A program made the translations under genes and the position numbers. The notes beneath the pieces were generated by a model. The model searched no databases. It saw nothing but the letters and a program-made list of their open reading frames with translations, and had not been told where the DNA came from. Positions 1 to 64,000 of a DNA stretch of 64,000 nt are shown here, piece after piece. Within the stretch, counting starts at the first letter, position 1, and the number at the start of each line of letters is the position of its first letter. Source of the DNA: an uncultured Thermus sp. (lineage in GTDB: Bacteria; Deinococcota; Deinococci; Deinococcales; Thermaceae); contig CAMTVD010000014.1 of assembly GCA_947085095.1 (NCBI GenBank), positions 192,001 to 256,000 on the forward strand. Direction: 5' to 3'.

Positions 1-685
1 GGCGGCGGTCTCCGGTCTCCAGGATGGCCCTGAGGCTCTCCGGGGGCCGCTTGCCCAGGCCCACCTGCAAAAGCGTCCCCACCATGCCCCGCACCTGGCC
101 GCGGAGGAAGCTTTTGCCCCGGAAGTAGAAGCGGACCTCGGGGCCCGCCTCCCCTTCCAGGGCCTCGAGGCGGGCCTCCAAAAGCTCCCGCACCCCTTCC
201 CGGGTCTCCTCCTTGGCGAAGCCCAGGAAGTTGTGCCTGCCCAGAAGGAGGGGGAGGGCCTCCCGGATGGCGGCGAGGTCCAGGGACTTCCTGAGCCAGA
301 GGGCCCGGTGGCGGAGGAGGGGGGAGGGGTGGGGCCTCAGGAGGACCCGGTAGCGGTAGGCCCGCCAGAGGGCGTCCCTCCTGGCGTGGAAGCCCGGGGC
401 CACCTCCTTTGCGGCCACCACCTTCAGGTCCTCGGGGAGGAGACGGTTTAGGGCCTCGGGCACCTTCTCCGTGGGGATGGGGCTTTGCAGGTCTATGTGG
501 AAGGGCATGAGGAGGGCGTGGACCCCGGCGTCCGTACGCCCCGCCGCCACCGCCTTGGGGAGGGCTCCGATGTGGGGAAGGGCCTTTTCCAGCTCGCCCT
601 GCACGGTGCGCAGGCCCTGCCGCTGCCTTTGGAGGCCGGCGAAGTGGGTCCCGTCGTACTCGGTGAGGAGGAGGATGCGGCGCAC
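1..685 (-). CDS. truA: tRNA pseudouridine(38-40) synthase TruA (3' end runs off the window)
   Basis: Manual translation from GTG at 685: [21 protein letters not shown]...TVQGELE...[10 protein letters not shown]...FHAR. Not in the ORF track because it is open at the window edge. Confidence 0.95.
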
Positions 686-694
686 AGGCCTAGC

Positions 695-1735
695 TTAGTC
701 GGTGCCCACCAGGGTTTTGCTCCCCTCGAGGGCCACCCCTTCCCCCACCACCTTGAGGCTCACCCGGTCCCCCACCCGGTAGGGGGTGGTGGGGTTTTCC
801 TGGACCAGAACCTCCCGCTCCAGGCCGAGGAGGCGGACCCGGTAGGTGAGGTCGTGCCCCTTGAACTCCCGGGCCACCACCTCGCCCAGGGGGCCCTGTC
901 CAGGGGGGGCTAGCCTCAGGGTCTCGGGCCTTAGGGAAAGGAGGAGGGGGCCGGTGGCGGGCTCGGCCAAGGGCACGGAGCCCAGGCAGGTTTCCGCATA
1001 CCGCCCCCGCCCTTCCCCGGGGAGGAGGTTGGTGCGCCCCAGGAACTGGGCCACGAAGGGGGTTCTGGGCCTTAGGTAGACCCCCTCGGGGGTCCCCACC
1101 TGCTCCAGCCTCCCCCCCCGCATGACCCCCAGGCGGTCGGCGAAGGAGAGGGCCTCCTCCTGGTCGTGGGTGACCAGCAGGGCGGTGGTGCCCGTGGCCT
1201 TCAGGATCCTGCGCACCTCTTCCCGGGTGGCGGCCCTAAGCCCTGCGTCCAGGCTGGAAAAGGGCTCGTCCAGGAGGACCAGCTTGGGCCCCGGGGCCAG
1301 GGCGCGGGCCAGGGCCACCCGTTGCTGTTGCCCCCCGGAGAGTTCCCCCGGCCTCCGGTTCTGGAAGAGGGTCATGCCCACCCGCTCCAGGGCCCTTCTG
1401 GCCCGCTCCAGGCGGTCCTCTCCCTTCAGGCCGAAGGCCACGTTGCCCAGGGCGGTGAGGTGGGGGAAGAGGGCGTAGTCCTGGAAGACGAAGCCGATGC
1501 CCCGCCTTTCCGGGGGTAAGGGGGTGATGTCCCGGCCCTCGAGGTGGACCCGTCCCGAATCGGGGCTCTCCAGCCCGGCGATGACCCTTAAGAGGGTGGT
1601 CTTGCCGCACCCCGAGGGGCCCAGGAGGGCCAGGATCTCCCCGGGATAGACCTCCAGGTCTATCCCCTTGAGCACCTCGTGCTCCCCGAAGCGCTTGCGA
1701 ACCCCTTGCAGTTCTAGAAGCGGCGCTCGCTCCAA
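695..1735 (-). CDS. fbpC: Fe3+ ABC transporter ATP-binding subunit (FbpC-like)
   Basis: Walker A GPSGCGKT, signature LSGGQQQR, Walker B LLDEP, C-terminal TOBE-like region; last gene of the operon. Confidence 0.88.
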   Translation of the reverse strand: MERAPLLELQGVRKRFGEHEVLKGIDLEVYPGEILALLGPSGCGKTTLLRVIAGLESPDSGRVHLEGRDITPLPPERRGIGFVFQDYALFPHLTALGNVAFGLKGEDRLERARRALERVGMTLFQNRRPGELSGGQQQRVALARALAPGPKLVLLDEPFSSLDAGLRAATREEVRRILKATGTTALLVTHDQEEALSFADRLGVMRGGRLEQVGTPEGVYLRPRTPFVAQFLGRTNLLPGEGRGRYAETCLGSVPLAEPATGPLLLSLRPETLRLAPPGQGPLGEVVAREFKGHDLTYRVRLLGLEREVLVQENPTTPYRVGDRVSLKVVGEGVALEGSKTLVGTD

Positions 1736-3261
1736 AGCAACACCCCCACAAAGGCCGCCGAGAGCAGGACGATGAGGAGGGCGAAGGGGGCGGCCTCGGC
1801 GAACATGGCTTCCTGAGTGTAGCCGAAAACCCGGGTGGCCAGGGTGCTGTAGCCCATGGGGGCAAGGAGAAGGGTGATGGGGAGCTCCTTGACCGCCCCG
1901 ATGAAGGCCAGGGCCCCTCCCGCCGCCGCTCCCCGCCAGAGCAGGGGGAAGGTAACCCGGAAGAAGGCCCCGGTGGGGGTTTCCCCCAGGGTCCTGGCCG
2001 CCTCCTCCAGCCTCCTGGGCACCTGGTGCAAGGCTCCCCGGATGGGCCCCAGGCTCTCCGCCAAAAAGTGGAAGGAAAGGACCAGGACCAAAAGGGGCAG
2101 GCTGCCGTAGAGGAAGGGAAGGCTTTTCAGGCTAAAGAAGACCCAGGCCAGGGCGAAGGCCAGGGGCGGGACAGCGTAGCCCAGGTAGGCGAGGCGTTCC
2201 AGGACCCGGGAGGCGGGGGAAGGGTGGCGCACCGCCAGGTAGGCGATGGGCAGGGCCATGCCCACGGCGAGGAGGGCGGTGGGTGCCGCCGCCAGGGCGG
2301 AGTGGAAGAAGGCCTCGGAGAGCCCCTGGAGGTTTTCCCTGGGGAAGCGGCTGGCCAGGTGCACAAGGGCGTAGAGGGGTAGGAGGAGGGCCAGCAGGAC
2401 GGGAAGGAGGGCGAGGAGGTAGGCCCAGGGGGCGAGGGCCCCCAGGCGTACGGCCCTGGCCCTTCTGCCCGCCCCCTTTCCTGTACGGGCCAGAAAGAGG
2501 CGGCGCAGGAGAAAGCCCTCGAGGAGGAGGAGCCCCCCGGTGAGGAGGAGGAGAAACAGGGCCAGCCAGGCGGCGTAGACCCGGTCAAAGGCGGCGCTGT
2601 ACTGCAGGTAGATGGCGTAGGAGAAGGTCTCGTAGCGGAGAAGGCTCACGGTGCCGAAGTCCCCCAGGACGTGGAGGCCCACCACCAGGTAGCCCGAGAG
2701 GAGGGCGGGGAGGAGCTGGGGGAAGGTGGCCTTGAGGAAGGCCCTGAAAGGGCTTAGGCCCAGGGTGCGGGCCGCTTCTTCCAAAGAGGGGTCCAGGCCC
2801 AAAAAGGCGGCCCTAAGGGAGAGGAAGAGGTAGGGGTAGGTGATGAAGGAGAGGACCAGGAGGGCCCCCCAGTACCCCTCGAGCCGGGGCAGGGGCAGAA
2901 ACCCCCCAGGCCCCGTGGCCGCCAGGAGGACGTAGGCCCCCACGTAGCCGGGGATGGCCAGGGGCAGGGTGAGGAGGGTGGCGAGAAACCGCTTTCCCTT
3001 AAGGTCCGTGCGGGTGGTGAGGAAGGCCAGGGGCAGGGCCAGGAGGGTGGTGAGGAGGAGAACCCCAAGGAGGAGGGTCAGGGTGTTCCCGAGGAGCGCC
3101 AGGTTCTTGGGCCTCAGCAGGATCTCCTGAAGGGCGCCTGGCTGGGCCTCGAGGGCCCTGAGGAGCAGGTAAAGGAGGGGCAGGGCCACCCCGCCCCCGG
3201 TGAGGAGGGCGGGGACCAGGAAGGGAAGAAGCCCCGGGAGGTGGGGAAGCCTTAGGGTCAC
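1714..3261 (-). CDS. fbpB: Fe3+ ABC transporter permease (FbpB-like)
   Basis: Hydrophobic 515 aa with two EAA motifs (LEEAARTLG twice). Confidence 0.88.
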   Translation of the reverse strand: MTLRLPHLPGLLPFLVPALLTGGGVALPLLYLLLRALEAQPGALQEILLRPKNLALLGNTLTLLLGVLLLTTLLALPLAFLTTRTDLKGKRFLATLLTLPLAIPGYVGAYVLLAATGPGGFLPLPRLEGYWGALLVLSFITYPYLFLSLRAAFLGLDPSLEEAARTLGLSPFRAFLKATFPQLLPALLSGYLVVGLHVLGDFGTVSLLRYETFSYAIYLQYSAAFDRVYAAWLALFLLLLTGGLLLLEGFLLRRLFLARTGKGAGRRARAVRLGALAPWAYLLALLPVLLALLLPLYALVHLASRFPRENLQGLSEAFFHSALAAAPTALLAVGMALPIAYLAVRHPSPASRVLERLAYLGYAVPPLAFALAWVFFSLKSLPFLYGSLPLLVLVLSFHFLAESLGPIRGALHQVPRRLEEAARTLGETPTGAFFRVTFPLLWRGAAAGGALAFIGAVKELPITLLLAPMGYSTLATRVFGYTQEAMFAEAAPFALLIVLLSAAFVGVLLWSERRF

Positions 3262-4253
3262 AGGATCCCGAGTTCCCGCAGGAGCCTCAAAGCCTGCTCC
3301 AGGGGGAGCTTCTCAAAGTCCAGCCTGGGGCTCTTGGCCAGGGCCTCTTCCAGGGGCAGGAGGCTGGGGTCGGCCACCACCCCTCTCACCAGGGGGTACT
3401 CCCCCACGTTGCCCACGAAGTACTGCTGGGCCTTAGGGGAGAGGAGGTAGGTGAGGAAGCGGGTGGCGTTGCCCAGGTTCTTGCTGGTCTTCAGGATGCC
3501 CGCCCCCGTGACCAGGGCCAGGTTGCCCACATCGCCGTCCTGGAAGTGGTGCATGCCCAGCTGGTACCCCGCCCGGCGGAAGCGCACCGCGTAGTAGTGG
3601 TTGGTGGAGCCGAGGTCAATCTCCCCCGCCCGGATGGCGTCCAGCATGGCCGGGTTAGAGGCGTAGGTCTTGGGGGCGAGGGCCTTCATCTCCGAAAGCC
3701 ACGCCCTGGTCTGGGCCTCCCCGTGCAGGGCGATCATCCCCGCCACCATGTCCTGGAAGCTGGAGTAGGTGGGGGTCCAGCCCACCCGGCCCACCAGGCC
3801 CTTCTCCCGGGCGAAGCGGGGTAGGTCCAGGATGGAGGGGGGGAGTTCCTCGGGCTTGAACTTTTGGGGGTTATAGGCCAGGACCCTAAGGCGCAGGGTC
3901 ACCGGCACCCAGGACCGGGAGGCGGGGGCGAAGGCCTGGGGGGTCTTGAGGAGGCTATCCCCCAGGGGCCTTAAAAGACCCAGCCCGGCGGCCCGGCCCA
4001 GGGCCCCCGAGGTGTTGCCCCAGAACACATCCGCAGGGGAGCGGCCTCCCTCCTCCTGCAGGGCCGCCAGGATCTGGGCATCGGTGCCGTAGCGCACCTG
4101 GACCCGGATGCCCGTATCCCGCTCAAACTGCTTCACCAAGGGCTCCACCAGGCTCTGGCCCCGGCCCGAGTAGACGGTGAGGGTCTGGGTCTGGGCCAAG
4201 CTAAGGTTTAGGATCGTTAGGCCGATAAGGGTCAGGATCGTTCTGCGCCGCAT
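3258..4253 (-). CDS. fbpA: Fe3+ ABC transporter periplasmic binding protein (FbpA-like)
   Basis: Signal peptide, LTVYSGR, NHYY iron-ligand motif; ATG at 4253 with GGAGG RBS upstream. Confidence 0.9.
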   Translation of the reverse strand: MRRRTILTLIGLTILNLSLAQTQTLTVYSGRGQSLVEPLVKQFERDTGIRVQVRYGTDAQILAALQEEGGRSPADVFWGNTSGALGRAAGLGLLRPLGDSLLKTPQAFAPASRSWVPVTLRLRVLAYNPQKFKPEELPPSILDLPRFAREKGLVGRVGWTPTYSSFQDMVAGMIALHGEAQTRAWLSEMKALAPKTYASNPAMLDAIRAGEIDLGSTNHYYAVRFRRAGYQLGMHHFQDGDVGNLALVTGAGILKTSKNLGNATRFLTYLLSPKAQQYFVGNVGEYPLVRGVVADPSLLPLEEALAKSPRLDFEKLPLEQALRLLRELGIL

Positions 4254-4312
4254 TCGAACCTCCAAGGGTGATTCCCGGGAGACCCCGGGGTGAGGGCGCC
4301 CTCTGCCTGGGC

Positions 4313-4341
4313 ACTCTATCCCAGGAGGAGGAGAAAGTCAA
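4313..4341 (-). promoter_or_regulatory. sigma70-type promoter of the fbpABC operon
   Basis: TTGACT (4341-4336), 17-bp spacer, TAGAGT (4318-4313) on the minus strand. Confidence 0.7.
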
Positions 4342-4358
4342 GTATTCCGGTCGGGTTT
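4334..4358. promoter_or_regulatory. Putative Rrf2/IscR type-1-like operator overlapping the fbp -35
   Basis: Minus strand AAACCCGACCGGAATACTTGACTTT matches ATASYYGACTRWWWYAGTCRRSTAT at 19/25 positions by manual alignment. Confidence 0.5.
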
Positions 4359-5114: not shown

Positions 5115-5192
5115 CTCTCCAGTTTGGCAGAAGGTGGTTTCGTGCACCCAGGGGTTGACCGGGCGGGGTAGTCTGAGGACGGAGGTAAGCCT

Positions 5193-5624
5193 ATGCCGGT
5201 GAGGAAAGCGGAAGCGGTTTGGGAGGGCGGGTTGCGTGCGGGCAAAGGGGTTATGAAGCTAGAGAGCCAGGCCTTCCAGGGCCCCTACTCCTTCCCCTCC
5301 CGCTTTGAGGAGGGGGAGGGGACCAACCCCGAGGAGCTCATCGCCGCGGCCCACGCGGGCTGCTTCTCCATGGCCCTCTCGGCGGCGTTGGAGCGGGAGG
5401 GGTTCCCCCCCAGGCGGGTTTCCACCGAGGCCCGGGTACACCTGGAGATGGTGGAGGGCAGGGCCACCATCACCCGGATAGAGCTCTTCACCGAGGCCGA
5501 GGTGCCCGGGGTTTCCCCGGAGAAGTTCCAGGAGGTCGCCCAGGCGGCCAAGGAGGGGTGCCCCGTCTCCCGGGCCCTGGCGGGGGTGAAGGAGATTCGC
5601 CTCGAGGCCCGCCTTTTGGGCTAG
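5193..5624 (+). CDS. osmC: OsmC-family peroxiredoxin
   Basis: GTNPEELIAAAHAGCF and CPVS motifs. Confidence 0.92.
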   Translation: MPVRKAEAVWEGGLRAGKGVMKLESQAFQGPYSFPSRFEEGEGTNPEELIAAAHAGCFSMALSAALEREGFPPRRVSTEARVHLEMVEGRATITRIELFTEAEVPGVSPEKFQEVAQAAKEGCPVSRALAGVKEIRLEARLLG

Positions 5625-7652: not shown

Positions 7653-7700
7653 GGTTTTGATTATAGGGGGCGCATGGGTAAGCCAATAGCGTTAGGGTAC

Positions 7701-7729
7701 TTGACAAATGTACGCGCATATGATATAAG
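7701..7729 (+). promoter_or_regulatory. Near-consensus sigma70 promoter of hsp20
   Basis: TTGACA-17 bp-TATAAG; GGAGG RBS at 7737-7741. Confidence 0.75.
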
Positions 7730-7749
7730 CGAAAACGGAGGTGATGTGT

Positions 7750-8214: not shown

Positions 8215-8229
8215 GGCCTAAACGCAAAG

Positions 8230-26186: not shown

Positions 26187-26426
26187 ATGGGCTTGGTCTT
26201 GGTCACCCGGGAGGGGTGCGGGCTTTGTGAGAGGGCGGAGCGGGCCCTTTGGACCCTGGGGGTGCCCTACGTGCGGCGGGAAGTGGACCGGGAGCCGGAG
26301 CTTTCCCCCTATGGCCTCCGCGTGCCCGTCCTCCTTTGGGAAAGCGGGGAGGTGCTCTTAGAAGGCGCTTTTGGCGAAAGGGAACTCTTGGCCCTTATGG
26401 AAAGACCCTTAGGAGGTGAGGCGTGA
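26187..26426 (+). CDS. Glutaredoxin-like protein (DUF836)
   Basis: CGLC motif, RVPVL. Confidence 0.8.
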
Positions 26427-27265
26427 ATCCCACCATGATAGAGATCGGTCCTTTGCGCATCCAGTGGTACGGCTTTCTCCTTACCCTGGCCATCCTCATC
26501 GGCTTTGAGCTGGCCAAGCGCCGGCTGAAGGCCTGGGGCTTTGACCCGGAGAAGTTTGAGACCGTGGCCTTCTTTGCCGTGGTCTTTGGCGTGGTGGGGG
26601 CCAGGCTGGGTTACGTCCTCACTTCTCCCGGATACTTCCTGGAAAACCCCGTGGAGATCCTCTACATCTGGCACGGGGGCCTCTCCTTCCACGGGGCCAT
26701 TTTGGGCGGGGCCTTGGTTTTCTTCTACTACCACAAGAAGAAGGGTTACCCCCTCTGGCCCTACCTGGACGCCACCGCCCCGGGGGTGGCCTTGGGCATC
26801 CTCGCCGGGCGCATCGGCAACCTGATGAACGGCTCGGACACTGCAGGCCGCCTCACCACCCTGCCCATCGGCTTCACCTGGCCGGAGTGGGCCAAGGGCT
26901 TTCCTGGGGTCTGCCCCGGGATTGACGACATCACCCAGGTCTACCAGTGCGCGGAGCTCCTCAGGGGCCCGGTCCACCTCACCCAGGTCTACGGGGCCCT
27001 GGTGGGGCTCATCCTCCTGCCCCTGTCCTACTACTGGCTCAGGAAGAAGCCCTTCTACGGCTACGCTTTCTGGCAACTGATCCTCTGGTACAGCGTCTTG
27101 CGCTCGGTTTTGGAGGAGCCCTTCCGCCTCAACCCCCTCTGGCTCCCGGTTTACCGGAACGAGGAGCTGGGGATCGGCCTCTTCACCGCCACCCAGGTGG
27201 TGAGCCTCCCCCTGATCCTGCTTTCCCTCTACATGCTGAGGCGGCTTCGCACCCAGACTGGCTAA
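26423..27265 (+). CDS. lgt: Prolipoprotein diacylglyceryl transferase
   Basis: WYG, GARLGY, GGLSFHG, GRIGN, H.TQ.Y. Confidence 0.95.
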
Positions 27266-33827: not shown

Positions 33828-34184
33828 ATGGGCCAGCGCCGGGCGCGGAGACGCCTATACCTGGGGTTCGCCCTGGGCTGGATGGGGGTCTTGTGGTACC
33901 TTTCCGCCCAGCCCGCCACCGGGGCTGGCCTCCCCCACCCCTGGGACAAGGCCGCCCACTTCGCCGCCTATGCCCTTCTCGGCTTCCTCTGGCGGCGCGG
34001 GCTTGGGCGCTTTCGCCCCGCCTTCCTCCTTTCCGCCCTTTACGGGGTGGTGGACGAGGGGCACCAAAGCTTCGTCCCCGGGCGGGAGGTGTCCTTTGGG
34101 GACCTCCTCGCCGACTTCCTGGGGGCCTACCTGGGGGCTAGGTGGGGGGGTAGAGGGGAAGTTCCAAAAGGCGCCCGCCCTTAG
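33828..34184 (+). CDS. VanZ-family membrane protein
   Basis: DKAAHF.AY, DEGHQSFVPGR, DLLAD. Confidence 0.88.
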   Translation: MGQRRARRRLYLGFALGWMGVLWYLSAQPATGAGLPHPWDKAAHFAAYALLGFLWRRGLGRFRPAFLLSALYGVVDEGHQSFVPGREVSFGDLLADFLGAYLGARWGGRGEVPKGARP

Positions 34185-34821
34185 CCCCCGCGGCCTGCAC
34201 CACCAGCTCGGCCACCAGCTCGGGGGCGATCCAGCGGCTGGGGTCGGCCTCGGGCATGGCCCGGCGGTTGGCCTCGGTGTCCAGGGTGCCCATGGGGTAG
34301 ACCACCAGAAAGCGCACCCCCTCCACCTCCCCCTGCAGGGACCTTAGGAGGCTCGCCAGGGCGGCCTTGGCGGCGGTGTAGAGGGCCCGGCCCGGACCCG
34401 CGCCCGTCCAGGCGGGGCCGGCGGCGAAGGCGGCGAAGAAGCCCTCCCCCCGCTTTTCCATGTAGGGGAGGACAGCCCTTAGGAGGTTATAGGTGGTGCG
34501 CAGGTTCAGGTCCAGCATCCAGTCGTAAAGCCCCGGGTCCGCGTCCAAAAAGCGCCCGGCGGCGAAGCCCCCCACGGTGTGGACCACGCCATAGAGGGGG
34601 GCCTCCCGTTCCACGGAGCGGGCGAGGGCCTGGGCCTCCTCCAGGCGGGTGAGGTCGGCCACAAAGGTCCTGGCCCCCACGGCCTCCGCCCTTTCCGCCA
34701 TGCGCTCCAAGCGGGGGTCGGAGAGGAAGAGCCTGGCCCCCGCCCGGTGGAAGGCGGGGATCAGGGCCCGGGAGAGGGCCCCCCCGGCTCCGGTGATGAG
34801 AAAGGCCTTACCTTCCAGCAT
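34138..34821 (-). CDS. SDR-family oxidoreductase
   Basis: ITGAGG, YTAAK, LDTEANR. Confidence 0.85.
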   Translation of the reverse strand: MLEGKAFLITGAGGALSRALIPAFHRAGARLFLSDPRLERMAERAEAVGARTFVADLTRLEEAQALARSVEREAPLYGVVHTVGGFAAGRFLDADPGLYDWMLDLNLRTTYNLLRAVLPYMEKRGEGFFAAFAAGPAWTGAGPGRALYTAAKAALASLLRSLQGEVEGVRFLVVYPMGTLDTEANRRAMPEADPSRWIAPELVAELVVQAAGAKGGRLLELPLYPPT

Positions 34822-34825
34822 GGCC

Positions 34826-35806
34826 TCATTGTACGGGGAGGAAAGCCAGGGCCTTGGGGGAGAAACCTAAGGAAGGGAGGGCCGCCCTCTGGGGCGGGGA
34901 GGGGACCAGGTCGTAGACGTAGAGTAGGCTCCCCGCCGCCAGGTACAGGTAGGCGTCCTGCCCCACCAGGCCGGCGGCAAAGGTCTGGAAGGCTTCCAAG
35001 TGGGGGGACTCCCTGGGCTCCAGCACCTGGAAGCCCTGGCCAAAGACCGCAAGCCCCGCCACCGGGTCCAGGGCCAGGCGGGCCAGGCGGGGGAAGTCTC
35101 CCAGGACCTTGCGGCTTTGCAGGGCCTCCCCCTGGAGGGTGTAGAGGCGGGTTTCCGTGGCCGTGCCCCCCAGGCCCAGAAGCCTTCCCCGGCTCCCGTC
35201 CGCCCGCAGGTCAAAGGGGCCCTGGCTGAGGGGTCTTTCGGGGAGGAGCTTTTCCAGACGGGGGCTACCCCCGGGGTCATGGGGGGGGCGGAAGCCCAGG
35301 GCGTTTGGGGTCAGGTAGCCCAGGAGGTCCAGGGCTCCCTGGGGGAGGAGGGCGAGGCGCAGGGGGGCCTCCAGCCCGGTGAGGTCGGCCTCGAGGGGGT
35401 CCTCCAGGCCGGGGGGAAAGAGGAAGGCCTTTCCCGCCCCCGGGCAGTGGACCAGGAGGCGGTTCTGCCCTAGGCGCAGGTACCCCCCGGCGCAGCCAGG
35501 GAGGGGCGCTGTGGCCTGGAGGTTCTGGGGGGCGGAAGTTTCGGTGAAACCGGAGGTGTCGTAGGCCTCGAGGCGGTCCAGGAAGAGCAGGTAAAGCCGC
35601 CCCTGGCTTCCCCAGTAGGCCAGGTCCTGGAGGCCGGGCGTGGTCCAGGCGGCCACCGGGGTGGCCAGGCCCCGTTGCAGGTCGGAAGCCTTGTAAAAGC
35701 GCACCTCGTCCCCGCTCCCCGCGGCCAAGAGGGCGGGGAGGGGGGGCTCCTGGCTTCCTGTGCAGGCCGCGAGGAGGAAGAGGAGGAGAAGAAGCCCCTT
35801 TCTCAT
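34826..35806 (-). CDS. Hypothetical lipoprotein
   Basis: MRKGLLLLLFLLAAC lipobox; ATG 35806 overlaps the upstream gene's stop (ATGA). Confidence 0.75.
   Translation of the reverse strand: MRKGLLLLLFLLAACTGSQEPPLPALLAAGSGDEVRFYKASDLQRGLATPVAAWTTPGLQDLAYWGSQGRLYLLFLDRLEAYDTSGFTETSAPQNLQATAPLPGCAGGYLRLGQNRLLVHCPGAGKAFLFPPGLEDPLEADLTGLEAPLRLALLPQGALDLLGYLTPNALGFRPPHDPGGSPRLEKLLPERPLSQGPFDLRADGSRGRLLGLGGTATETRLYTLQGEALQSRKVLGDFPRLARLALDPVAGLAVFGQGFQVLEPRESPHLEAFQTFAAGLVGQDAYLYLAAGSLLYVYDLVPSPPQRAALPSLGFSPKALAFLPVQ

Positions 35807-45192: not shown

Positions 45193-45193
<1 letters not shown>
42905..45193 (-). CDS. hrpB: ATP-dependent RNA helicase HrpB
   Basis: PGAGKST, EPRR.AA, DEAHER, QRAGRAGR, LSPAGRP.Q.T.DL..FW, RYPKHPWP. 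Confidence 0.93.
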
Positions 45194-50930
<5,737 letters not shown>

Positions 50931-50966
50931 CGAAGGTGTGTTGGCGCGAAGGCTATCATGGCTTCT

Positions 50967-52652
50967 ATGACGGAAGCGGAGCTCTTGGCCCTGATTAAGG
51001 AGGGAGAGTCCCTCCGCCTCGAGTTCAAGCGCGACGCTCCCCTCTCCGAGGCCGACCTCGTTGAGGCGGTGGCCTGCTTGGCCAACACCGAGGGAGGATG
51101 GCTGCTCCTGGGGGTGGAGGACGGTGGCTCCATCAGCGGCCTGCACGCCAGCCGCCAATCTGTTGATCCGGCACAAATCCAGGCGCTGATCACCAACAGG
51201 ACCTACCCCAGCGTTCCGGTGGAAATCCATGTGGTGCCAACCTCCAAGGGGACCGTCCTCGCCGTAAAAGTGCCCAAAGTTAACGAGCTGGTGGGCCTCA
51301 GCGATGGGCGGGTGCCCAGGCGCTACATCGCCGGCCGAGGCAGGCCTGAATGCAGGTTTTTGCAACTGCACGAGATCGCTTCTCGCTTGGCCGAGATTCG
51401 GCAACAGGACTACACGGCCCAGGTTTTTCCCGACGCGAGTTGGGAGGATTTGGATCCATTAGAGTTTGAGCGTTTGCGGCAGGCTATTCAGCGCAATCCT
51501 TCCGCAGACAAAGAGTTGCTTGGCCTTCCTGACGCGGAGCTGGCCCAGGCCCTGGGCTTGGCGAGGACCTACGAAGGGCGCTTGGCGCCTACGGTGGGGG
51601 GTTTGCTGGTTCTGGGGCGGGAGGAGGCTATCCGGCGTTTGGTACCCACCCACGAGGCGGCTTTCCAGGTGCTGCGAGAGGACCGGAGCGTGGCCTTCAA
51701 CGAGTTTTACCGGGAACCGCTGCTCAGGCTTTTTGAGCGCATGGAGCAGCTTTTTAAGGCCCAAAATCCTGAGGAGGAGGTGACCGTTGGGCTGTACCGT
51801 GTTCCCATTCCCCTCTTCCCACCAGAGGCCTTTCGGGAAGCCCTCGCCAACGCCCTGGTGCACCGGGATTACCGGGTTTTGGGGACGGTGTTCGTGAGGA
51901 TAGATCCGGAGGCTGGGGGTCTGGTGATCAGCAACCCCGGGGGGTTTGTGGAGGGGGTGACTCTGGAGAACCTCTTGGTGGTGGAGCCTCGTCCCCGCAA
52001 CCCCCTTCTGGCCGATGTTTTCAAACGCCTGGGCCTGGTGGAGCGCACGGGGCGGGGTATAGACAGGATCTTCCGGGAGGTCTTGGGGCTTGGGAGGCGG
52101 CCGCCGGATTACTCGGGTACCACGCAGGACATGGTGAAGGTTGTTCTTCCTGGCGGGAAGGCTGACCTGAACTTTGTGAGGCTTATCCTCGAGGTCCAAG
52201 ACCGCTACGGCAGGCAGCTGGGCTGGCCCCATCTCTTAGTGTTGCGCCAGGCGGCCGATGAGGGCGAGCTGAGCGTGCCCGAGGTGGCGCGCCTCACTCA
52301 GCAGGGAGAGGCGCGGGCCCGGAGTTTGGTGGAAGAGATGGTGGAGATGGGGCTTCTCGAGGCCAAAGGGTCCAAGAAGGGACGGGTGTACCATCTGAGC
52401 GCCTGGGTCTTCAAGCGGCTGGGGCGGCCCACGGCCTATGTTCACAGGCGAGGGATAGAGCAGGTTCGCCAGGAGGAGTTGATTATGCAAATAGCCTACA
52501 AATACGGAAAGGTAACCCGGGGGGATGTCCTGCAGCTTTTCCCCAATCTGACCGAGGACCAGGCTTTCCGTTTGCTTCAAAGGCTGGTTCAGTCCGGTCG
52601 GTTGCGTCCAAAGGGAAGCAAAAGGGGGCGTTACTATGAGCCAGCGGAGTAG
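50967..52652 (+). CDS. Schlafen/AlbA_2 - HATPase_c_4 (RecG-C-like) - winged-HTH protein
   Basis: GESLRLEFK...LANTEGG.LLLGVEDGG; REALANALVHRDY, ISNPGG, RNPLLA, ERTGRG; two C-terminal wHTH-like segments; start ATG 50967 (alternative 50958). Confidence 0.85.
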   Translation: MTEAELLALIKEGESLRLEFKRDAPLSEADLVEAVACLANTEGGWLLLGVEDGGSISGLHASRQSVDPAQIQALITNRTYPSVPVEIHVVPTSKGTVLAVKVPKVNELVGLSDGRVPRRYIAGRGRPECRFLQLHEIASRLAEIRQQDYTAQVFPDASWEDLDPLEFERLRQAIQRNPSADKELLGLPDAELAQALGLARTYEGRLAPTVGGLLVLGREEAIRRLVPTHEAAFQVLREDRSVAFNEFYREPLLRLFERMEQLFKAQNPEEEVTVGLYRVPIPLFPPEAFREALANALVHRDYRVLGTVFVRIDPEAGGLVISNPGGFVEGVTLENLLVVEPRPRNPLLADVFKRLGLVERTGRGIDRIFREVLGLGRRPPDYSGTTQDMVKVVLPGGKADLNFVRLILEVQDRYGRQLGWPHLLVLRQAADEGELSVPEVARLTQQGEARARSLVEEMVEMGLLEAKGSKKGRVYHLSAWVFKRLGRPTAYVHRRGIEQVRQEELIMQIAYKYGKVTRGDVLQLFPNLTEDQAFRLLQRLVQSGRLRPKGSKRGRYYEPAE

Positions 52653-52662
52653 CCCGAAACCC

Positions 52663-52737
52663 CGGTTAACCACGGATAACCGCAACTGCCGTTATTTTCG
52701 AGGAGATATAACCGCGTCCGCGGTTATTTGCGGATAA
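52663..52737. promoter_or_regulatory. Tandem palindromic operator-like array
   Basis: ATAACCGC-N4-GCCGTTAT (52676-52695) and ATAACCGC-N4-GCGGTTAT (52708-52727), plus flanking CGG(T/A)TAA half-sites. Confidence 0.65.
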
Positions 52738-52747
52738 AGGAGGACCC

Positions 52748-55513
52748 ATGAGTCACAAACGCCGTCTCATAGAGCACCGCCTGCCCCTCAAGGAAATCTC
52801 CGAGGCCTCGGCCCGGGAGAAGTCCATCCGCCACGGGCACATCTCCACCCTGCACATCTGGTGGGCCAGGCGGCCCCTGGCGGCGAGCCGGGCGGCGGTC
52901 TTCGCCACGCTGGTGCCCGACACCGAGGAGAACTACCAGCTGGTCAAGAAGATCGTGCCCTGGGAGGCGGTGAAGGAGGGGAATAGCCGCGATGTGCTAG
53001 AGGCCCGGCAGAGGGTCCTGGAGGCGAATGGGGGTGTGCCCCCCAAAGTCCTGGACCCCTTCGCCGGGGGCGGGGCCATCCCCTTGGAGGCCCTGCGCCT
53101 GGGGTGCGAGGCCTACGCCCTGGACCTGAACCCCGTGGCCTACCTGATCCTGAAGGCCACCCTGGAATACCCCCAGCGCTTCGGCCAGCCCCATAGCCGT
53201 CCCGTGCCCCCCTACATCCAGGCCCTGGACCAGGCCCACGCCCAAGCCAGGGACCGAGCGGCCCAGGGCAGAACCAGACTCCTCGAGGAGGGAGGAGGGG
53301 TCCGGGATGGTCCTTTTGCCCAGGCCTACCGGCAGAACCCCCTGGCCGCCGAGGTGCGCTACTGGGGGGAGTGGGTGCTGGAAAGGGCAAGGGCCGAGCT
53401 GGCCGAGTTCTACCCCCAAGACCCCGACGGCAGGACTCCCGTGGCCTACCTCTGGGCCCGCACGGTGACCTGCACCAACCCCGCCTGCCGGGCCGAGGTG
53501 CCCCTGGTGCGCCAGTGGTGGCTGGCCAAGAGGAAGAAGAAGCGCATCGCCCTTAGGCCCGTGGTGGACCGGGAGGCCAAGCGGGTGGGCTTCCAGGTGG
53601 TGGAGGTGCCCCAGGGCGAGGACTGGCCCGACCAGGGGACCATCCAGCGGGGCAACGCCGCCTGTTTGGTGTGCGGCACCGTGGTGCCTGTGGAAACCGT
53701 GCGGAGCGAGGCCAGGCGGGGCACCTGGGGGGAGCGCATGCTGGCGGTGGTGCTGGCCGAAGAGGGCGAGGGCAAAGCGTACCGCCCGGCTACGGACAGG
53801 GACAAGGCCATCTTTGAAGGGGCCAAGGCCAGGCTTGCGGAACTCCAAGCGGCCCACACGGGGGAGCCAAGCCTTGTTCCTGAGGAACCCCTACCCCCTA
53901 AGGGGACACTCGGTTTTCGTGTCAATCTTTACGGCATTCAGACCTGGGGCCAGCTTTTCAACCCCCGCCAGGCCCTGGCCCTGGTTACCTTCGCCAGGTG
54001 GGTGCGGGAAGCCCACGCCGAGATGCTCCGGCAGGGCATGGACGAGGAGCTGGCCAAGGCCGTGGCAACGTATTTGGGTTTGGCTGTGGATAGGCTAGCT
54101 GAAGACGATTCATCCTTGTGTCGGTGGAATCCTAACTCGGAAAAAATACAAGGAACGTTCGGGCGGCAAACTATCCCTATGGTTTGGGATTATGCAGAAA
54201 CTAACCCTTTTGGTACGTCTGTTGGTAGCTGGAAATCCTTAGTAGATCTGCAAAACAACTCTATACTTGGTGCTAGTCAAGTTGAGGGGATTGGTCAAGT
54301 TCTGCAGGGAACAGCAGTGAACCCGCCCTATCCGGGGGATTTCTTTGACGCCGTGGTCACGGACCCCCCCTACTACGACGCCGTGCCCTACGCCGACCTC
54401 TCGGACTTCTTCTACGTGTGGCTCAGGCGCACCGTGGGCCACCTCTACCCGGAGCACTTCCGCACCCCCCTTACCCCAAAGGGGCAGGAGGCCGTGCAGA
54501 ACCCCGTGCGCCACGGGGGGGACAACGAGAAGGCCAGGCGCTTCTTTGAGGAGATGATGGCCCAGGCCTTCCGGGAGATGCACCGGGTCCTGAAGCCCGA
54601 GGGCAAGGCCGCCATCGTCTTCGCCCACAAGAGCACCGAGGCCTGGGAGACCCTCATCAGCGCCCTCGTTGGGGCCGGGTTCCAGGTGGAGGCCTCCTGG
54701 CCCATCCACACGGAGATGAAGACCCGCCTGCGGGCTAGGGAGTCCGCCGCCCTGGCCTCCTCCATCTTCCTAAGCTGCACCAAGCGGGTGGGCCAGGGGA
54801 CCGTGGGCCTCTTCGCCCAGGTGCGGGAGGAGATGCGAAGGGCCATCCTGCCCAGGCTGGAGGAGTTCTGGGAGTCCGGCATCCGGGCGGCGGACTTCTT
54901 CGTGTCCGCCATCGGGCCGGGCCTGGAGGCCTTCAGCCGCTACGAGGAGGTGCGCCGGGCGGACGGGAGGCGGGTGGAGGTGGGGGAGTTCCTGGACGAG
55001 GTGCGGAAGATCGTCCTGGACTTTGCCCTGGAGCGGGTCCTGGGGGCCAAGGCCGAGGCGGCGGGGGCCGTGGACGGGCCCACCCAGTTCGCCCTCCTCG
55101 CCCTCTGGGCCTACGGCCTGGAGGTTCCCTCGGACGAGGCCCGCAAGATCGCCCAGAGCACCGGGGTGAGCCTCCCTGAGCTTGGGAGCCTGGTCCGGGT
55201 GGAGGGGGAGAAGACCCGCATCCAGAAGGCCAGGGAAAGGGTAAAGCGGGACCGGGACTTTGGCCTTGCCAAGGGGGGCCTGGTGCCCATGGTGGACACC
55301 CTGCAAAGGGCCATCCTCCTCCTCCGCGAGGGGCGGGAGGCCTTGGCCCAGTACCTGGAGGGCGTGGGCCACCTCAAAAGCCCCACCTTCTGGCTGGTGG
55401 CCCAGGCCCTGGCCGAGGTTCTGGAGGGGGAGGACGAGGGGCGGGACCTGCACGAGCTCCTCACCCTGCGGGAGGGCCTTATGCGGGTGGCGGAGGCGGG
55501 GAGGTTGCTGTAA
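52748..55513 (+). CDS. DUF1156-family adenine-specific DNA methyltransferase
   Basis: TLHIWWARRPL, motif I DPFAGGG, CTNPAC...CLVC, motif IV TDPPYY, FAHK...WE; AGGAGG RBS. Confidence 0.9.
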   Translation: MSHKRRLIEHRLPLKEISEASAREKSIRHGHISTLHIWWARRPLAASRAAVFATLVPDTEENYQLVKKIVPWEAVKEGNSRDVLEARQRVLEANGGVPPKVLDPFAGGGAIPLEALRLGCEAYALDLNPVAYLILKATLEYPQRFGQPHSRPVPPYIQALDQAHAQARDRAAQGRTRLLEEGGGVRDGPFAQAYRQNPLAAEVRYWGEWVLERARAELAEFYPQDPDGRTPVAYLWARTVTCTNPACRAEVPLVRQWWLAKRKKKRIALRPVVDREAKRVGFQVVEVPQGEDWPDQGTIQRGNAACLVCGTVVPVETVRSEARRGTWGERMLAVVLAEEGEGKAYRPATDRDKAIFEGAKARLAELQAAHTGEPSLVPEEPLPPKGTLGFRVNLYGIQTWGQLFNPRQALALVTFARWVREAHAEMLRQGMDEELAKAVATYLGLAVDRLAEDDSSLCRWNPNSEKIQGTFGRQTIPMVWDYAETNPFGTSVGSWKSLVDLQNNSILGASQVEGIGQVLQGTAVNPPYPGDFFDAVVTDPPYYDAVPYADLSDFFYVWLRRTVGHLYPEHFRTPLTPKGQEAVQNPVRHGGDNEKARRFFEEMMAQAFREMHRVLKPEGKAAIVFAHKSTEAWETLISALVGAGFQVEASWPIHTEMKTRLRARESAALASSIFLSCTKRVGQGTVGLFAQVREEMRRAILPRLEEFWESGIRAADFFVSAIGPGLEAFSRYEEVRRADGRRVEVGEFLDEVRKIVLDFALERVLGAKAEAAGAVDGPTQFALLALWAYGLEVPSDEARKIAQSTGVSLPELGSLVRVEGEKTRIQKARERVKRDRDFGLAKGGLVPMVDTLQRAILLLREGREALAQYLEGVGHLKSPTFWLVAQALAEVLEGEDEGRDLHELLTLREGLMRVAEAGRLL

Positions 55514-55541
55514 GTGGTCTAGGGATTGGAGGTTCGTGGCC

Positions 55542-61113
<5,572 letters not shown>

Positions 61114-61218
61114 GCCCCTATCTAACGCCCAAGGCCCCCTTTTTGTCCAGCTCCTCATGGTCCTTTGACAAAGCCGTGCTACCCTGGGTTTGGGGGGTGT
61201 GGTAGCGTTTCCAATCCT

Positions 61219-62109
61219 ATGGGTATGCGGCCTTGGCAGGTGGAGTCAGAAAAGGAGCGCCTGGAGCTTCGGGCCAGGCTCCACGAGCTCTTGCACCGCC
61301 TGAAGGGGGAGCCCAACGCCCTCTTGCCCTTCCACCAGGCCCTGGCCCTGAGGCCCAGGGGGGAGCACCACCTGGGCCTCCGCACCCTTGAGGTGGACAG
61401 GGTGGTGGGCTCCGTGGACCGCTATGAGGAGTTTGACCACACCTTCCTCCCCAAGACCCCCCACACCCTGGAGCGCTGGAAGCGGCTTAGGACTCTCCAG
61501 CTTGAGGGGGTGGAGTTTCCCCCCATAGAGGTCTACCAGGTGGGGGAGGCCTACTTCGTCAAGGACGGCCACCACCGGGTGGCCCTGGCCAAGGCCACGG
61601 GGCAGAGGTACATAGACGCCTACGTCATCGCCCTGGATGTCCCCGTTCCCGTGGAGCCTGGGGACACGCTCAAGGACCTGATCCTCAAGGCCGAGTACGC
61701 CCACTTCCTGGAGAAGACCCGGCTGAAGGAGCTCGTTCCCGCGGCCGAGGAGATCCGCTTCAGCGCCTTGGGCCGTTACGACCTCCTCCTGGACCACATC
61801 GCCACCCGGCGGTACTTCAAGGGGCTGGAAGAAGGCCGGGAGGTCTCCTGGGAGGAGGCGGTGGTGGACTGGTACGAGAACCTCTACCGGCCCACCACGG
61901 AGGCCATCCGCCGCCTGGGGCTCCTCAAGGACTTCCCTGGGCGGACGGAGGCGGACCTTTACCTCTGGATCATGGACCACCGCCACTTCCTGGCCCAGGA
62001 GCTGGGGGTGGACCTCTCCCCCGAGGAGGCGGCCAGGAGCTACGAGGAGCGGTTTGGTCCCTTCTGGAAGCGGCTTGGGGGTGGCCTCAAGCGGCTTCTC
62101 AGACCCTAG
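61219..62109 (+). CDS. ParB/Srx-like domain protein (DUF4032-associated type)
   Basis: VGSVDRY..FD, PPIEVY, YFVKDGHHRV, DLYLWI..H; start ATG 61219 or 61225. Confidence 0.7.
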   Translation: MGMRPWQVESEKERLELRARLHELLHRLKGEPNALLPFHQALALRPRGEHHLGLRTLEVDRVVGSVDRYEEFDHTFLPKTPHTLERWKRLRTLQLEGVEFPPIEVYQVGEAYFVKDGHHRVALAKATGQRYIDAYVIALDVPVPVEPGDTLKDLILKAEYAHFLEKTRLKELVPAAEEIRFSALGRYDLLLDHIATRRYFKGLEEGREVSWEEAVVDWYENLYRPTTEAIRRLGLLKDFPGRTEADLYLWIMDHRHFLAQELGVDLSPEEAARSYEERFGPFWKRLGGGLKRLLRP

Positions 62110-62136
62110 GGTTGCCCGGGGTGCGGGTCCCGGCTT

Positions 62137-62152
62137 ATCCTGTATACAGGAT
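62137..62152. promoter_or_regulatory. Perfect 16-bp palindrome, probable GntR operator
   Basis: ATCCTGTATACAGGAT overlaps the -10 (TATCCT, 62136-62141) and the ATG; -35 TTGCCC at 62112-62117. Confidence 0.7.
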
Positions 62153-62810
62153 GCAGGCCACGGACTTCCGCCGGCCCAACCAGGTGCGCGAGGCGGTCTA
62201 CGGCCACCTCAAGGACCTCCTCCTCTCCGGCCGCTTTGCCCCGGGGGAGAGGCTTTCCGAGCCCCTTCTCGCCAAGGAGCTCGGAGTCTCCCGCACCCCG
62301 GTGCGGGAGGCCCTCATGCGCCTTGCCAAGGAGGGCTTGGTGGAGCTCGTCCCCGGCAAGGGGGCGAGGGTCAGGGCCTTCACCCCGGAGGAGGTGGAGG
62401 AGGTCTACGGGGTGCGGGCCCTCTTGGAGGGGGAGGCGGCCCGGGAGGCGGCCCTCCGGGCCACCCCCTGGGAGCTTTTAGAGCTGGAGGAGCTCCTTAA
62501 GGCCATAGACCAGGCCCCCCGGGAGGACTACCCCGAGCAGATGCGCCGGGACCTGGAGTTCCACCGCGCCCTGGTGCGCCTTTCGGGAAACCGGACCCTC
62601 CTCCGCCTCTATGAGGACCTCCTCGCCACCCTGGCCCTGGCCCGGAGCGCGGTGCCCATGCTCTCCCAGGAGGAGGCCACCCGGCGGGAGCACTGGGCCA
62701 TCCTCAAGGCCCTAAAGGAGCGGGACCCGGAAGGGGCGAAGAGGGCGGTGGAGGCCCACGTCTACCGCTTCCGCGACCTGGTGGTGCGGCGGCTTTTGGA
62801 GGGAATATGA
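62151..62810 (+). CDS. GntR (FCD-type) regulator of the proline utilisation operon
   Basis: [29 protein letters not shown]. Confidence 0.92.
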
Positions 62811-63730
62811 GCCTAGACCTGGCGTACCGGTCTTTCGTCCTGAGCGTGGCGGGGAATAAGGGGGTGGAGCGCCTCATCAAGACCCGGGCCCGGGGCCTGG
62901 TGCGGCGCTACGTGGCCGGGGAGACCCTGGAGGAGGCCCTGAGGGCGGCGGAGGCCCTCGAGGGGGAAGGGGTCCACGCCATCCTGGACCTCCTGGGGGA
63001 GATGGTGAGGAGCGAGGCGGAGGCCCGGGCCTTCCAGGAAAGGATCCTGGAGCTGGTGCGGGCCGTGAGGGAGAGGCCCTGGCCCAAGTACATCTCCGTA
63101 AAGCCCTCCCAGCTGGGCCTGGACCTTTCCGAGGGACTGGCCCGGGAGCTCCTAAGGGGAATCCTCAAGGAGGCCGAGCAGGGGGGGGTTTTCGTCCGCC
63201 TGGACATGGAGGACTCCCCCCGGGTGGAGGCCACCTTGCGCCTCTACAAGGGCCTAAGGGAGGAGGGGTTTTCCCTTCTCGGAATCGTCCTCCAGAGCTA
63301 CCTCTTCCGCACGGAGAAGGACTTCTTTGACCTCCTCCCCTACCGGCCCAACCTGCGCCTGGTCAAGGGCGCCTACCGGGAGCCCAAGGAGGTGGCCTTC
63401 TGGGACAAGCGCCTGATTGACGCCGAGTTTTTGCACCTGGGGAAGCTGGCCTTGAGGGAAGGCCTTTACGTGGCCTTCGCCACCCACGACCCCCGCCTCA
63501 TCGCCGAGGTGAAGCGCTACACAGAGGCCATGGGCATCCCCAGGGGGGGCTTTGAGTTCCAGTTCCTCTACGGGGTGCGCCCCGAGGAGCAAAAGCGCCT
63601 GGCCCAGGAGGGGTATGCGGTGCGGGCCTACGTGCCCTACGGCAAGGACTGGTACCCCTACCTGACCCGGCGCATCGCCGAAAGGCCGGAGAACCTGTTT
63701 CTGGTGCTGAGAAGCCTCTTGGGAGGCTAG
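62807..63730 (+). CDS. Monofunctional proline dehydrogenase
   Basis: DLLGE, RLDMEDS, RLVKGAY, ATHD, YVPYG..WYPY.TRR.AERP. Confidence 0.95.
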
Positions 63731-63742
63731 AAGGAGGACAGG

Positions 63743-64000
63743 ATGACGGTGGAACCTTTCCGTAACCAGCCCATAGAAACCTTTGCCAGCGAAGAGGCCA
63801 GGCGGGAGATGCGGGAGGCCCTGAAGCGGGTCAGGGCCGAGTTTGGCCGCCACTGGCCCCTCTACATCGGGGGGGAGTGGGTGGACACGGGGGAGAGGAT
63901 CCTCTCCCTAAACCCTTCCGCCCCCAGCGAGGTGGTGGGGACGGTGGCCAAGGGGGGGAAGGCGGAGGCGGAGGCCGCCCTCGAGGCCGCCTGGAAGGCC
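63743..64000 (+). CDS. Delta-1-pyrroline-5-carboxylate dehydrogenase (5' part only)
   Basis: Manual translation MTVEPFRNQPIETF...PLYIGGEW...SLNPSAPSEVVG; AGGAGG RBS; follows proline dehydrogenase. Confidence 0.9.
   Translation, partial: MTVEPFRNQPIETFASEEARREMREALKRVRAEFGRHWPLYIGGEWVDTGERILSLNPSAPSEVVGTVAKGGKAEAEAALEAAWKA

Follow-up and report, generated by a model that had tools for sequence, protein, structure and literature searches.

The 64,000-nt window analysed here (G000:C14:192001-256000, from a draft Thermus genome of 93% completeness) carries an orphan TaqI-type N6-adenine DNA methyltransferase (hereafter M), flanked by an aminotransferase gene and by an Hma defence island beyond which lies gyrB, and it is marked throughout by an unusual distribution of the tetranucleotide TCGA (Table 1). 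Of the 67 TCGA in the window, 63 lie inside CTCGAG and 57 inside the octameric palindrome CCTCGAGG (hereafter the octamer). The initial annotation, made from the letters alone, had pointed to recurrent CTCGAG (at 164, 725, 1538, 2518, 2878, 3148 and 5601), to only four other TCGA contexts (TTCGAA 4253, ATCGAC 50304, TTCGAG 52697 and GTCGAT 60694), and to rare codons preventing TCGA in lgt (ATA-GAG 26438, TTT-GAC 26540, TTT-GAG 26555 and ATT-GAC 26921). All of these coordinates were correct, no further TCGA context occurred in the window, and the lgt pairs were in frame.

Table 1. Genes and sequence words of the window that bear on TCGA avoidance and the octamer (positions are those of the window).
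Feature	Position	Strand	Remarks
Orphan TaqI-type N6-adenine DNA methyltransferase, 408 aa	58700..59926	-	Pfam Eco57I (PF07669) and TaqI_C (PF12950); NPPY at residue 98
CCTCGAGG (57 copies) and six other CTCGAG (CCTCGAGC twice, GCTCGAGC, CCTCGAGT, TCTCGAGG, GCTCGAGG)	1..64000	.	word count
TTCGAA	4253..4258	.	non-CTCGAG TCGA, outside any tRNA
lgt (example gene)	26423..27265	+	9/9 NTN codons preceding a GA codon without NTC: ATA, TTT (3), ATT, CTG (2), GTG, TTG
gyrB	45193..47505	-	conserved downstream neighbour of M or M-R elsewhere in Thermus; separated from M by the island here
Hma defence island: HmaA, Schlafen/AlbA_2, HmaB, HmaC	47625..58721	+	site of R.TaqI in other species; holds 2/4 non-CTCGAG TCGA of the window
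ATCGAC	50304		non-CTCGAG TCGA, in Hma island
TTCGAG	52697		non-CTCGAG TCGA, in Hma island
Aminotransferase gene	59926..61158	-	conserved upstream neighbour of TaqI-type M across Thermus
GTCGAT	60694..60699	.	non-CTCGAG TCGA, in aminotransferase gene

The same distribution was found genome-wide, where words were counted on 40 of the 41 contigs (C41 was excluded as odd and foreign-looking) and expectations were taken from base composition (order 0) or from a second-order or third-order Markov model. TCGA occurred 1896 times, compared with 6205 expected from composition and 2820 from the second-order model, and 1725 of these copies lay within CTCGAG and 1576 within CCTCGAGG. The octamer, expected 81 (order 0) or 161 (order 3) times, was the most frequent palindromic 8-mer of the genome, the runner-up having 812 copies, and GTCGAC was found once against 708 expected. 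The exemption that had been proposed for CTCGAG therefore holds within CCTCGAGG and not for CTCGAG generally, as GCTCGAGG/CCTCGAGC had 108 copies and GCTCGAGC had 3, compared with 1576 octamers. Among the 320 TCGA outside the octamer, 163 were one mismatch away from it, mostly at the outermost base, and 29 lay in tRNA genes (44 in the genome), mostly in T-loops, where they are held in place by function. A concentration of non-octamer TCGA in atypical genes was rejected, since only a weak trend with codon score was found (0.19 per kb in the lowest fifth of genes vs 0.11 in the highest).

The excluded contig C41 (8621 bp; GC 0.55 vs 0.68 elsewhere) encodes a type I HsdM and holds 36 TCGA, one CTCGAG and no octamer, and probably represents either contamination or a recent acquisition. 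Other short palindromes are scarce as well: AATT occurred 107 times against 1429 expected from composition and 216 from the Markov model, and CGCG, CTAG and the 6-bp palindromes CAATTG, ACTAGT, ACGCGT and CGATCG were also very rare genome-wide. Other Thermus restriction systems may lie behind these words, and the methylome listings of PMC4752239 include orphan AATT and TTAA methylases for Meiothermus.

Codon pairs were counted in 1889 genes from our own codon log-odds caller, which cover 1.85 of 2.08 Mb (some genes are missed and start codons are approximate), and were compared with a codon-independent expectation. The 15 NTC-GAN pairs other than CTC-GAG reached 0.00-0.10 of expectation (observed/expected: TTC-GAG 9/537, GTC-GAC 1/495, ATC-GAG 25/650), and ATA, ATT and TTT substituted for ATC and TTC ahead of GA codons. 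CTC-GAG stood at 0.59 (1491 vs 2537 expected), so that on this yardstick CTCGAG is spared and not over-used, and the excess of CTCGAG over the other NTCGAN words suggested by the initial annotation survived this codon-corrected comparison. The flanking bases were decisive: CTC made up 44.8% of Leu codons (1378/3076) in C-Leu-GAG-G, about 5% of those before GAG with one matching flank, and 0-1.2% with none (0-6% overall). Leu and Val NTC codons are disfavoured ahead of any G-starting codon in this genome, with a local CTC baseline of 6-15% ahead of GC, GG and GT codons, against which the octamer was enriched 3-7 fold.

The rule also held in the other two frames. The Ser codon TCG was used in 41 of 64 CC-TCG-AGG contexts, whereas its share was 0.32 after CC ahead of non-A codons and 0.002-0.02 ahead of other A-starting codons; the rare Arg codon CGA was used in 14 of 22 CCT-CGA-GG contexts, compared with 0.02-0.05 generally. 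Most genic octamers (1378/1433, about 96%) stand in frame C-CTC-GAG-G and encode Leu-Glu, and octamer density was 0.61 per kb in uncalled DNA, which includes missed genes, vs 0.78 in genes. These results demonstrated that the exempt word is the octamer CCTCGAGG, not the hexamer CTCGAG, and that the rule applies to the DNA itself, whichever of the three frames the word occupies. Codon usage alone is ruled out as the cause by the flank dependence, the other frames and the link to the endonuclease (R) described below. C-to-T deamination at TCGA was likewise rejected, since four-fold codons shift to G-ending (CTG, GTG) and not to T-ending synonyms, and CTT-GAG and GTT-GAG stood at 0.16 and 0.26 of expectation. 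As a separate observation, Leu CTC (0.06-0.15) and Val GTC are strongly disfavoured before G-starting codons in this genome and in the Thermus genome G009, with CTC at 0.39 in the Thermus genome G030; the codon-junction bias differs among Thermus species.

M matched the M.TaqI structure 2ibs over residues 6-405 (E 1.8e-170) and PADLOC MTase_II (2.9e-169), has the Eco57I-type catalytic domain, NPPY motif and TaqI_C domain of the M.TaqI family, and was 59-65% identical by tblastn to the Thermus copies that precede an R gene. TaqI-type M was found in 23/23 other sampled Thermus (six Thermus genomes were not covered), in genus g5, in the sister genome G064, and in G005 and G017, and it adjoins the same aminotransferase gene and/or gyrB in 32/32 Thermaceae loci examined. 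R.TaqI (RE_TaqI) occurs in 9 of the 32 Thermus species surveyed, always directly after M, and was not found in the present, 93% complete genome. In a quick maximum-likelihood IQ-TREE tree of 69 methylases, the Thermus methylases grouped with support 99, together with one entry from a Synergistota metagenome-assembled genome (MAG) and with one Bacteroidia MAG entry nested inside, and the R-less methylases, the window's M included, formed a long-stemmed subclade (support 98-100). The ratio of nonsynonymous to synonymous substitution rates (dN/dS) was 0.28-0.37 among orphan copies vs 0.08-0.17 among R-linked copies; at about 0.3 the orphan M is thus still constrained, less than the R-linked enzymes.

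The Hma island lies exactly between the orphan M and gyrB, where other Thermus have R.TaqI or nothing, and the M-gyrB gap looks like a defence-gene insertion point. HmaA is an SNF2 helicase with NOV_C, HmaB a DUF1156 methylase and HmaC a DUF499 ATPase with a Swt1-like HEPN domain; the Schlafen/AlbA_2 gene (50958-52652) interrupts this set. The other methylase candidates of the genome are three PF01555 (beta-class) enzymes, a type I HsdM, a type IIG enzyme and HmaB. The C5-methylase family PF00145 had no match in the genome, and a C5 methylase with Vsr-type repair was rejected as the driver on this ground; XhoI-family PF04555 had none either, a weak negative, as control genomes also gave none. 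Neither gyrB nor the aminotransferase gene was found in the first 100 kb of G064, so that a locus shared by its methylase and the Thermus M was rejected. In genus g2, the window's methylase gave no strong match (E 1e-10 or better) in 12 of 13 genomes, and those genera may therefore use another methylase family. TaqI-type M-R pairs with 58% identity to the window's M were also seen on contigs assigned to Bacteroidia and Caldimicrobium (L057, L055), the Bacteroidia one being nested in the Thermus clade of the tree, and Armatimonadota and Chloroflexota MAGs from hot springs commonly have pairs of ~50% identity. This suggests either that thermophiles have exchanged these genes or that the contigs were mis-binned.

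The strictness of TCGA avoidance followed the endonuclease. In a survey of 121 Deinococcota genomes, including the 32 Thermus species, in which hexamer counts (GTCGAC, ATCGAG) served as proxies for TCGA, ATCGAG per genome (both strands) ranged from 34 to 143 (median 61) in the 9 R-bearing species and from 42 to 753 (median 322) in the 23 R-less ones, about five times more, a comparison that, like all those of species with and without R given here, is made among related, non-independent species and in which R absence rests on draft assemblies. Per 100 kb, R-bearing G030 had 8.2 non-CTCGAG TCGA, R-less G009 had 101 and this genome 8.3. In G030, ATC made up 4.9% ahead of GA codons vs 96.7% ahead of other G codons; in G009 it was back at 66% ahead of GA, and the non-CTCGAG TCGA of that genome were evenly spread over 400 kb. 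Octamer counts were independent of R presence. Supportively, four Thermus phages held 3-29 TCGA against 16-188 expected: 29 vs 106-188 in the first 50 kb of P23-45, 29 vs 70-150 in the first 50 kb of phiYS40, and three each in P23-77 (2 inside the octamer) and IN93 (all octamer). The TCGA purge is thus genus-wide and R.TaqI-linked, and the long-term TaqI-type avoidance proposed initially is borne out by the M locus (syntenic in 32/32), by R in 9/32 species, by the looser avoidance without R and by the phages. The initial reading of the exemption through an orphan methylase was not supported as worded, since R-bearing species with their own M show the same exemption (G030: octamer CTC share 0.51, ATC ahead of GA 0.049). 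Bases 1-50000 of phage P23-45 (GC 0.57) also hold no GATC, other 4-bp palindromes having 115-343 copies, and the phage encodes a C5 cytosine methylase.

Across the genus, 32/32 Thermus species carried 1241-2174 octamers per genome (200-587 for the reversed word used as control), a density of 0.6-1.1 per kb whether R was present or not, and 0-30 GTCGAC (control 175-532). GTCGAC occurs hundreds of times per genome in most sister genera and in Deinococcaceae, and its strong depletion was found only in Thermus and genus g5 among the 121 Deinococcota genomes. Octamers were abundant across family f1 (598-2174) and in genera g8 (2010) and g12 (1817) of family f3, with fewer in g7 of that family (342-586), 17-928 in family f4, and scarce in Deinococcaceae (2-269). 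Six sister genomes, sampled as 100-kb stretches, showed no avoidance, with 574-882 TCGA per 100 kb vs 92 here. CTCGAG was their commonest NTCGAN hexamer (176-282 per 100 kb; in Thermales one per 350-570 bp), and CTC-GAG formed 52-83% of their Leu-GAG pairs, with CTC only 8-14% ahead of other G codons in G037 and G054. In five of these genomes the flanks shifted the CTC-GAG share by no more than 10 percentage points; in G079 the share was 83% with C..G flanks and 52% without. Octamer density was 0.2-0.87 per kb in these samples vs 0.76 in Thermus, and a Deinococcaceae sample (G058) held 11 CTCGAG. Since the sister genomes are rich in CTCGAG without avoiding TCGA, the ancestral state looks like hexamer enrichment, after which Thermus would have lost all TCGA but the octamer. 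As a side observation, GTCGAC is selectively rare in G064:C1 (114 in 2.3 Mb; 3 in 100 kb), where other TCGA contexts are common, a possible sign that its lineage has a SalI-type system.

Octamer spacing was more even than expected by chance. Compared with 1000 permutations of the octamer and CCTGGAGG/CCTCCAGG labels, spacings <100 bp made up 2.1% vs 7.8 +/- 0.6% permuted and spacings <300 bp 11.8% vs 22.3 +/- 0.9%, and the coefficient of variation was 0.81 vs 1.03, with 0/1000 permutations as low for either of the latter two. The same short-range repulsion of octamers was found in G009 and G030, where again 0/1000 permutations gave so small a share of spacings <300 bp; for the hexamer, repulsion was absent from G064, G054 and G079 and weak in G037. 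At most 4 octamers lay within 600 bp, so that no clusters stood out that might mark an origin. The initial suggestion of a possibly functional iterated palindrome gains support from the enrichment in three frames and from this even spacing. Turnover was followed in 167 ortholog pairs with G009 and 251 with G030 (four-fold-site identity 0.67 and 0.70), in which octamer and CCTGGAGG states swap at about the synonymous background rate. Where the flank differed between species, TCGA was also lost in 100 of 102 'other Leu-Glu' states, which indicates that intermediates are not tolerated.

Published methylation data are available for relatives of Thermus. Table S3 of Blow 2016 (PMC4752239) lists orphan Type II N6-methyladenine (m6A) CTCGAG methylases, with no cognate endonuclease, for three Thermales: M.Mhy14884I of Marinithermus hydrothermalis (Marky_0034, annotated as Eco57I-family; 94.6% of CTCGAG detected), M.Mru1279II of Meiothermus ruber (99.5% detected) and M.Mch9957IV of M. 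chliarophilus, with none listed for M. silvanus; CTCGAG comes up in the main text of that paper, in the portions we draw on, for Nocardia replication-origin clusters only. All 67 'unmodified' CTCGAG coordinates of its table S5 land on CTCGAG in G064:C1, and a homologue of the window's methylase, 52-56% identical, lies at 33985-35160 of G064; taken together, the M.TaqI family has a CTCGAG-specific member. Octamers made up 5/67 of the unmodified sites in G064 vs 839/2860 of the other sites (Fisher p 2.7e-5), and 13.5% of T-flanked half-sites were unmodified, compared with 1.6% each of C- and G-flanked ones, which shows that flanks matter to the M.TaqI family in the cell. The half-site classes (C,C):(C,G):(G,G) stood at 1576:108:3 here and 844:1069:417 in G064, and half-site effects thus multiply in Thermus. 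We found no paper on the flank kinetics of TaqI enzymes, no Thermus methylome in the literature beyond T. aquaticus YT-1, and no methylation data in the T. parvatiensis PacBio paper.

These data bear on the initial proposal that the orphan methylase modifies CTCGAG specifically. That M is a close M.TaqI homologue (E 1.8e-170), M.TaqI modifying all TCGA, and belongs to an R-less subclade of the genus-wide TaqI methylases does not support it as worded; in its favour, a published single-molecule real-time (SMRT) methylome assigns CTCGAG-only m6A to the 52-56% identical G064 enzyme. With such a relative, homology alone cannot settle the specificity of the window's M, and a narrowed specificity in the orphan clade is possible.

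The account that we consider somewhat more probable than not combines two superimposed forces, a long-resident TaqI system purging TCGA and a Thermales-wide, methylase-linked enrichment of CTCGAG, with a race between M and R at the octamer. A TaqI-type restriction–modification (R-M) system that cuts TCGA and methylates TCGm6A would have resided at aminotransferase-M-R-gyrB since before the Thermus species split, its endonuclease expelling TCGA 50-100 fold through synonymous codon choice; after loss of R, replaced here by the Hma island, the orphan M would be kept by purifying selection while TCGA creeps back. The order Thermales would favour CTCGAG, m6A-methylated by orphan methylases in Meiothermus and Marinithermus, and in Thermus this positive force would be confined to CCTCGAGG, which stays near 0.75 per kb in all the species. 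The TaqI-type M, kin of a CTCGAG-specific enzyme, may modify TCGA fastest when both strands read TCGAGG, and a new or transiently unmethylated TCGA elsewhere may be cut by R.TaqI and erased by recombinational repair, Thermus being polyploid. An extra pull could come from use of the regularly spaced methylated sites or from a methylation-linked repair bias. The Thermales-wide CTCGAG preference does co-occur with orphan m6A CTCGAG methylases, and the octamer is exempt in Thermus, enriched in all frames and evenly spaced; the cause of its escape is our inference, as are the M-R race, the flank preference of the Thermus enzyme and any function.

Several points weigh against this account. M.TaqI and R.TaqI are generally held to act on TCGA whatever its context, and the target of the orphan M, here and in other R-less Thermus, is presumed from homology. 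C- and G-flanked half-sites are equally methylated in G064, which does not display the C-over-G preference that is needed, and SMRT 'unmodified' calls may themselves vary with sequence context. In G030 the CTC baseline before G codons is 0.39, so that an octamer CTC share of 0.51 needs little positive force. Third-base identity at octamer/CCTGGAGG positions is 69% and 73%, compared with 67% and 70% at all four-fold sites; octamer sites are therefore conserved no better than four-fold sites, which argues against strong selection on individual sites. Finally, the present genome lacks R and is yet as strict as R-bearing species (42 ATCGAG), which implies either recent loss of R or a pressure other than a resident R; its strictness fits a recent replacement of R by the Hma island.

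A doubtful but serious competitor gives the octamer a function as a signal on the chromosome, recognised by a protein or serving as an m6A mark for repair, replication or organisation and selected at ~1 per kb, in which case the flank rule would come from the reader protein and the exemption would mean that selection is stronger than the cost of restriction. Even spacing, seen in three Thermus genomes, the enrichment in all frames down to the rare CGA codon, the near-constant density (0.6-1.1 per kb in 32 species, irrespective of R) and the purifying selection on orphan M (dN/dS about 0.3) all agree with it, as does the parallel of the cyanobacterial highly iterated palindrome HIP1, with its orphan methylases and periodic spacing (PMC4390886, PMC5861425). 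On the other side, single octamers are gained and lost as fast as neutral synonymous sites change, no clustering stands out (≤4 copies per 600 bp), and the hexamer of sister genera lacks even spacing in 3/4 genomes. We know of no reader protein for the octamer. A bolder reading, which we would put forward only tentatively, makes CCTCGAGG a true Thermus HIP, that is, an evenly spaced m6A-marked signal kept by a domesticated TaqI methylase and descended from a CTCGAG system of Thermales, perhaps of wider Deinococcota; MutS/MutL mismatch-repair strand choice, replication and chromosome folding are conceivable, if speculative, candidate processes for it.

It is improbable, in our judgement, that a second, dedicated methylase, 8-bp or strand-specific for the (TC)GAGG adenine, shields CCTCGAGG while R.TaqI clears the rest and the TaqI-type M has no special role. 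Half-site effects do multiply as if each strand were read separately, and three beta-class N6/N4 methylases, the type I HsdM, the type IIG enzyme and HmaB are available as candidates. However, the TaqI type is the sole methylase found in every Thermus examined, and the beta-class enzyme on C18, rejected as a universal protector, is present in just 16/23 other Thermus, compared with the octamer rule in 32/32 (the C35 and C36 enzymes were not traced). Where R is present, moreover, the cognate M already protects all TCGA, so that an extra protector adds nothing unless the M-R race matters. Least credible of all is a by-product of translation, through codon-pair or tRNA effects on Leu-Glu and NTC-GAN. 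The 1378/1433 genic octamers in frame C-CTC-GAG-G and the disfavour of Thermaceae for NTC ahead of any G-starting codon for Leu and Val would suit it, but the rule extends to the other two frames, depends symmetrically on the preceding and following base as a palindrome would, loosens where R.TaqI is missing and is shared by phages, and non-octamer sites survive chiefly in tRNA genes; the other-frame rule and the loosening without R contradict a purely translational cause.

Restriction-site avoidance was reportedly treated by Gelfand and Koonin in 1997. To our knowledge, no site avoidance with an exempt super-site is known, and no Thermus report of one was found in the literature; likewise, nothing was found in print on CCTCGAGG, on a HIP or on TCGA avoidance in Thermus, most subscription journals being outside reach. 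As far as the relevant parts of Rusinov 2015 (PMC4687349) go, avoidance is linked to long-resident orthodox Type II systems, the 4-bp palindrome of a chromosomal system is under-represented in host and phages, and avoidance tracks residence time and leaves a trace after loss. Thermus resembles this in having a cognate R-M system in the lineage, an under-represented site, and avoidance that follows R presence or residence; it differs in that the depletion is 50-100 fold at codon pairs and genus-wide, and in that not every context is avoided, as one extended context, CCTCGAGG, is fully exempt and enriched. The system itself is that of TaqI/TthHB8I of Thermus (M.TaqI 2ibs, 1g38; PMC5587805), with a full-length M match and an R.TaqI-family gene directly downstream in 9/32 species, except that here R is missing, the Hma island stands in its place, and the orphan copies form their own long-stem subclade under relaxed constraint. 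The orphan CTCGAG methylases of PMC4752239 fit in that CTCGAG is the favoured word of the sampled sister genomes and that the Marinithermus enzyme belongs to the M.TaqI family; the portions of that paper used here contain no discussion of CTCGAG in Thermales or of its genome-wide enrichment.

With HIP1 (GCGATCGC), described in the consulted parts of PMC4390886 and PMC5861425 for cyanobacteria only, the octamer shares the form of a GC-rich octameric palindrome at ~1 per kb (762 per Mb here, 300-2700 for HIP1), occurrence in coding DNA in several frames, non-random spacing, and variant words in related taxa. In being the top palindromic 8-mer at hundreds per Mb and in its non-random spacing it behaves as a HIP would. 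The octamer would also contain the target, predicted by homology, of a clade-conserved methylase, as TaqI-type M was found in every Thermus examined, orphan in most. The differences are that HIP1 reaches observed/expected ratios of 55-228 vs 20 (order 0) and 10 (order 3) here, that Thermus genic copies stand ~96% in one frame, as Leu-Glu, that HIP1 sites are conserved above control words (PMC5861425) whereas Thermus octamer sites are not conserved between genomes above controls or synonymous background, and that the core of the Thermus word is a strongly avoided restriction site.

These findings show the extent to which synonymous codons can be reshaped across a genus by a resident restriction system, 50-100 fold, with Ile and Phe pushed onto rare codons ahead of Asp and Glu, and species that have lost the endonuclease offer a natural time series of TCGA recovery. 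They explain why XhoI sites are common and TaqI or SalI sites rare in Thermus genes, and ordinary TCGA, as carried by C41 and the Hma island, can serve as a marker of foreign DNA. The exempt super-site is new to us and suggests either that TaqI-type enzymes strongly prefer certain flanks in the cell or that the methylated word has a function. CTCGAG enrichment is extended here to cultivated genera, set beside published methylation data and considered in its interplay with a restriction enzyme, and restriction-site avoidance is thereby tied to the unexplained HIPs in a cultivable, transformable organism. If the octamer were indeed a HIP, a restriction enzyme and a functional methylation word would be shaping each other's sequence space, and the genetically tractable Thermus thermophilus would become the first model in which the three-decade HIP puzzle could be tested directly.

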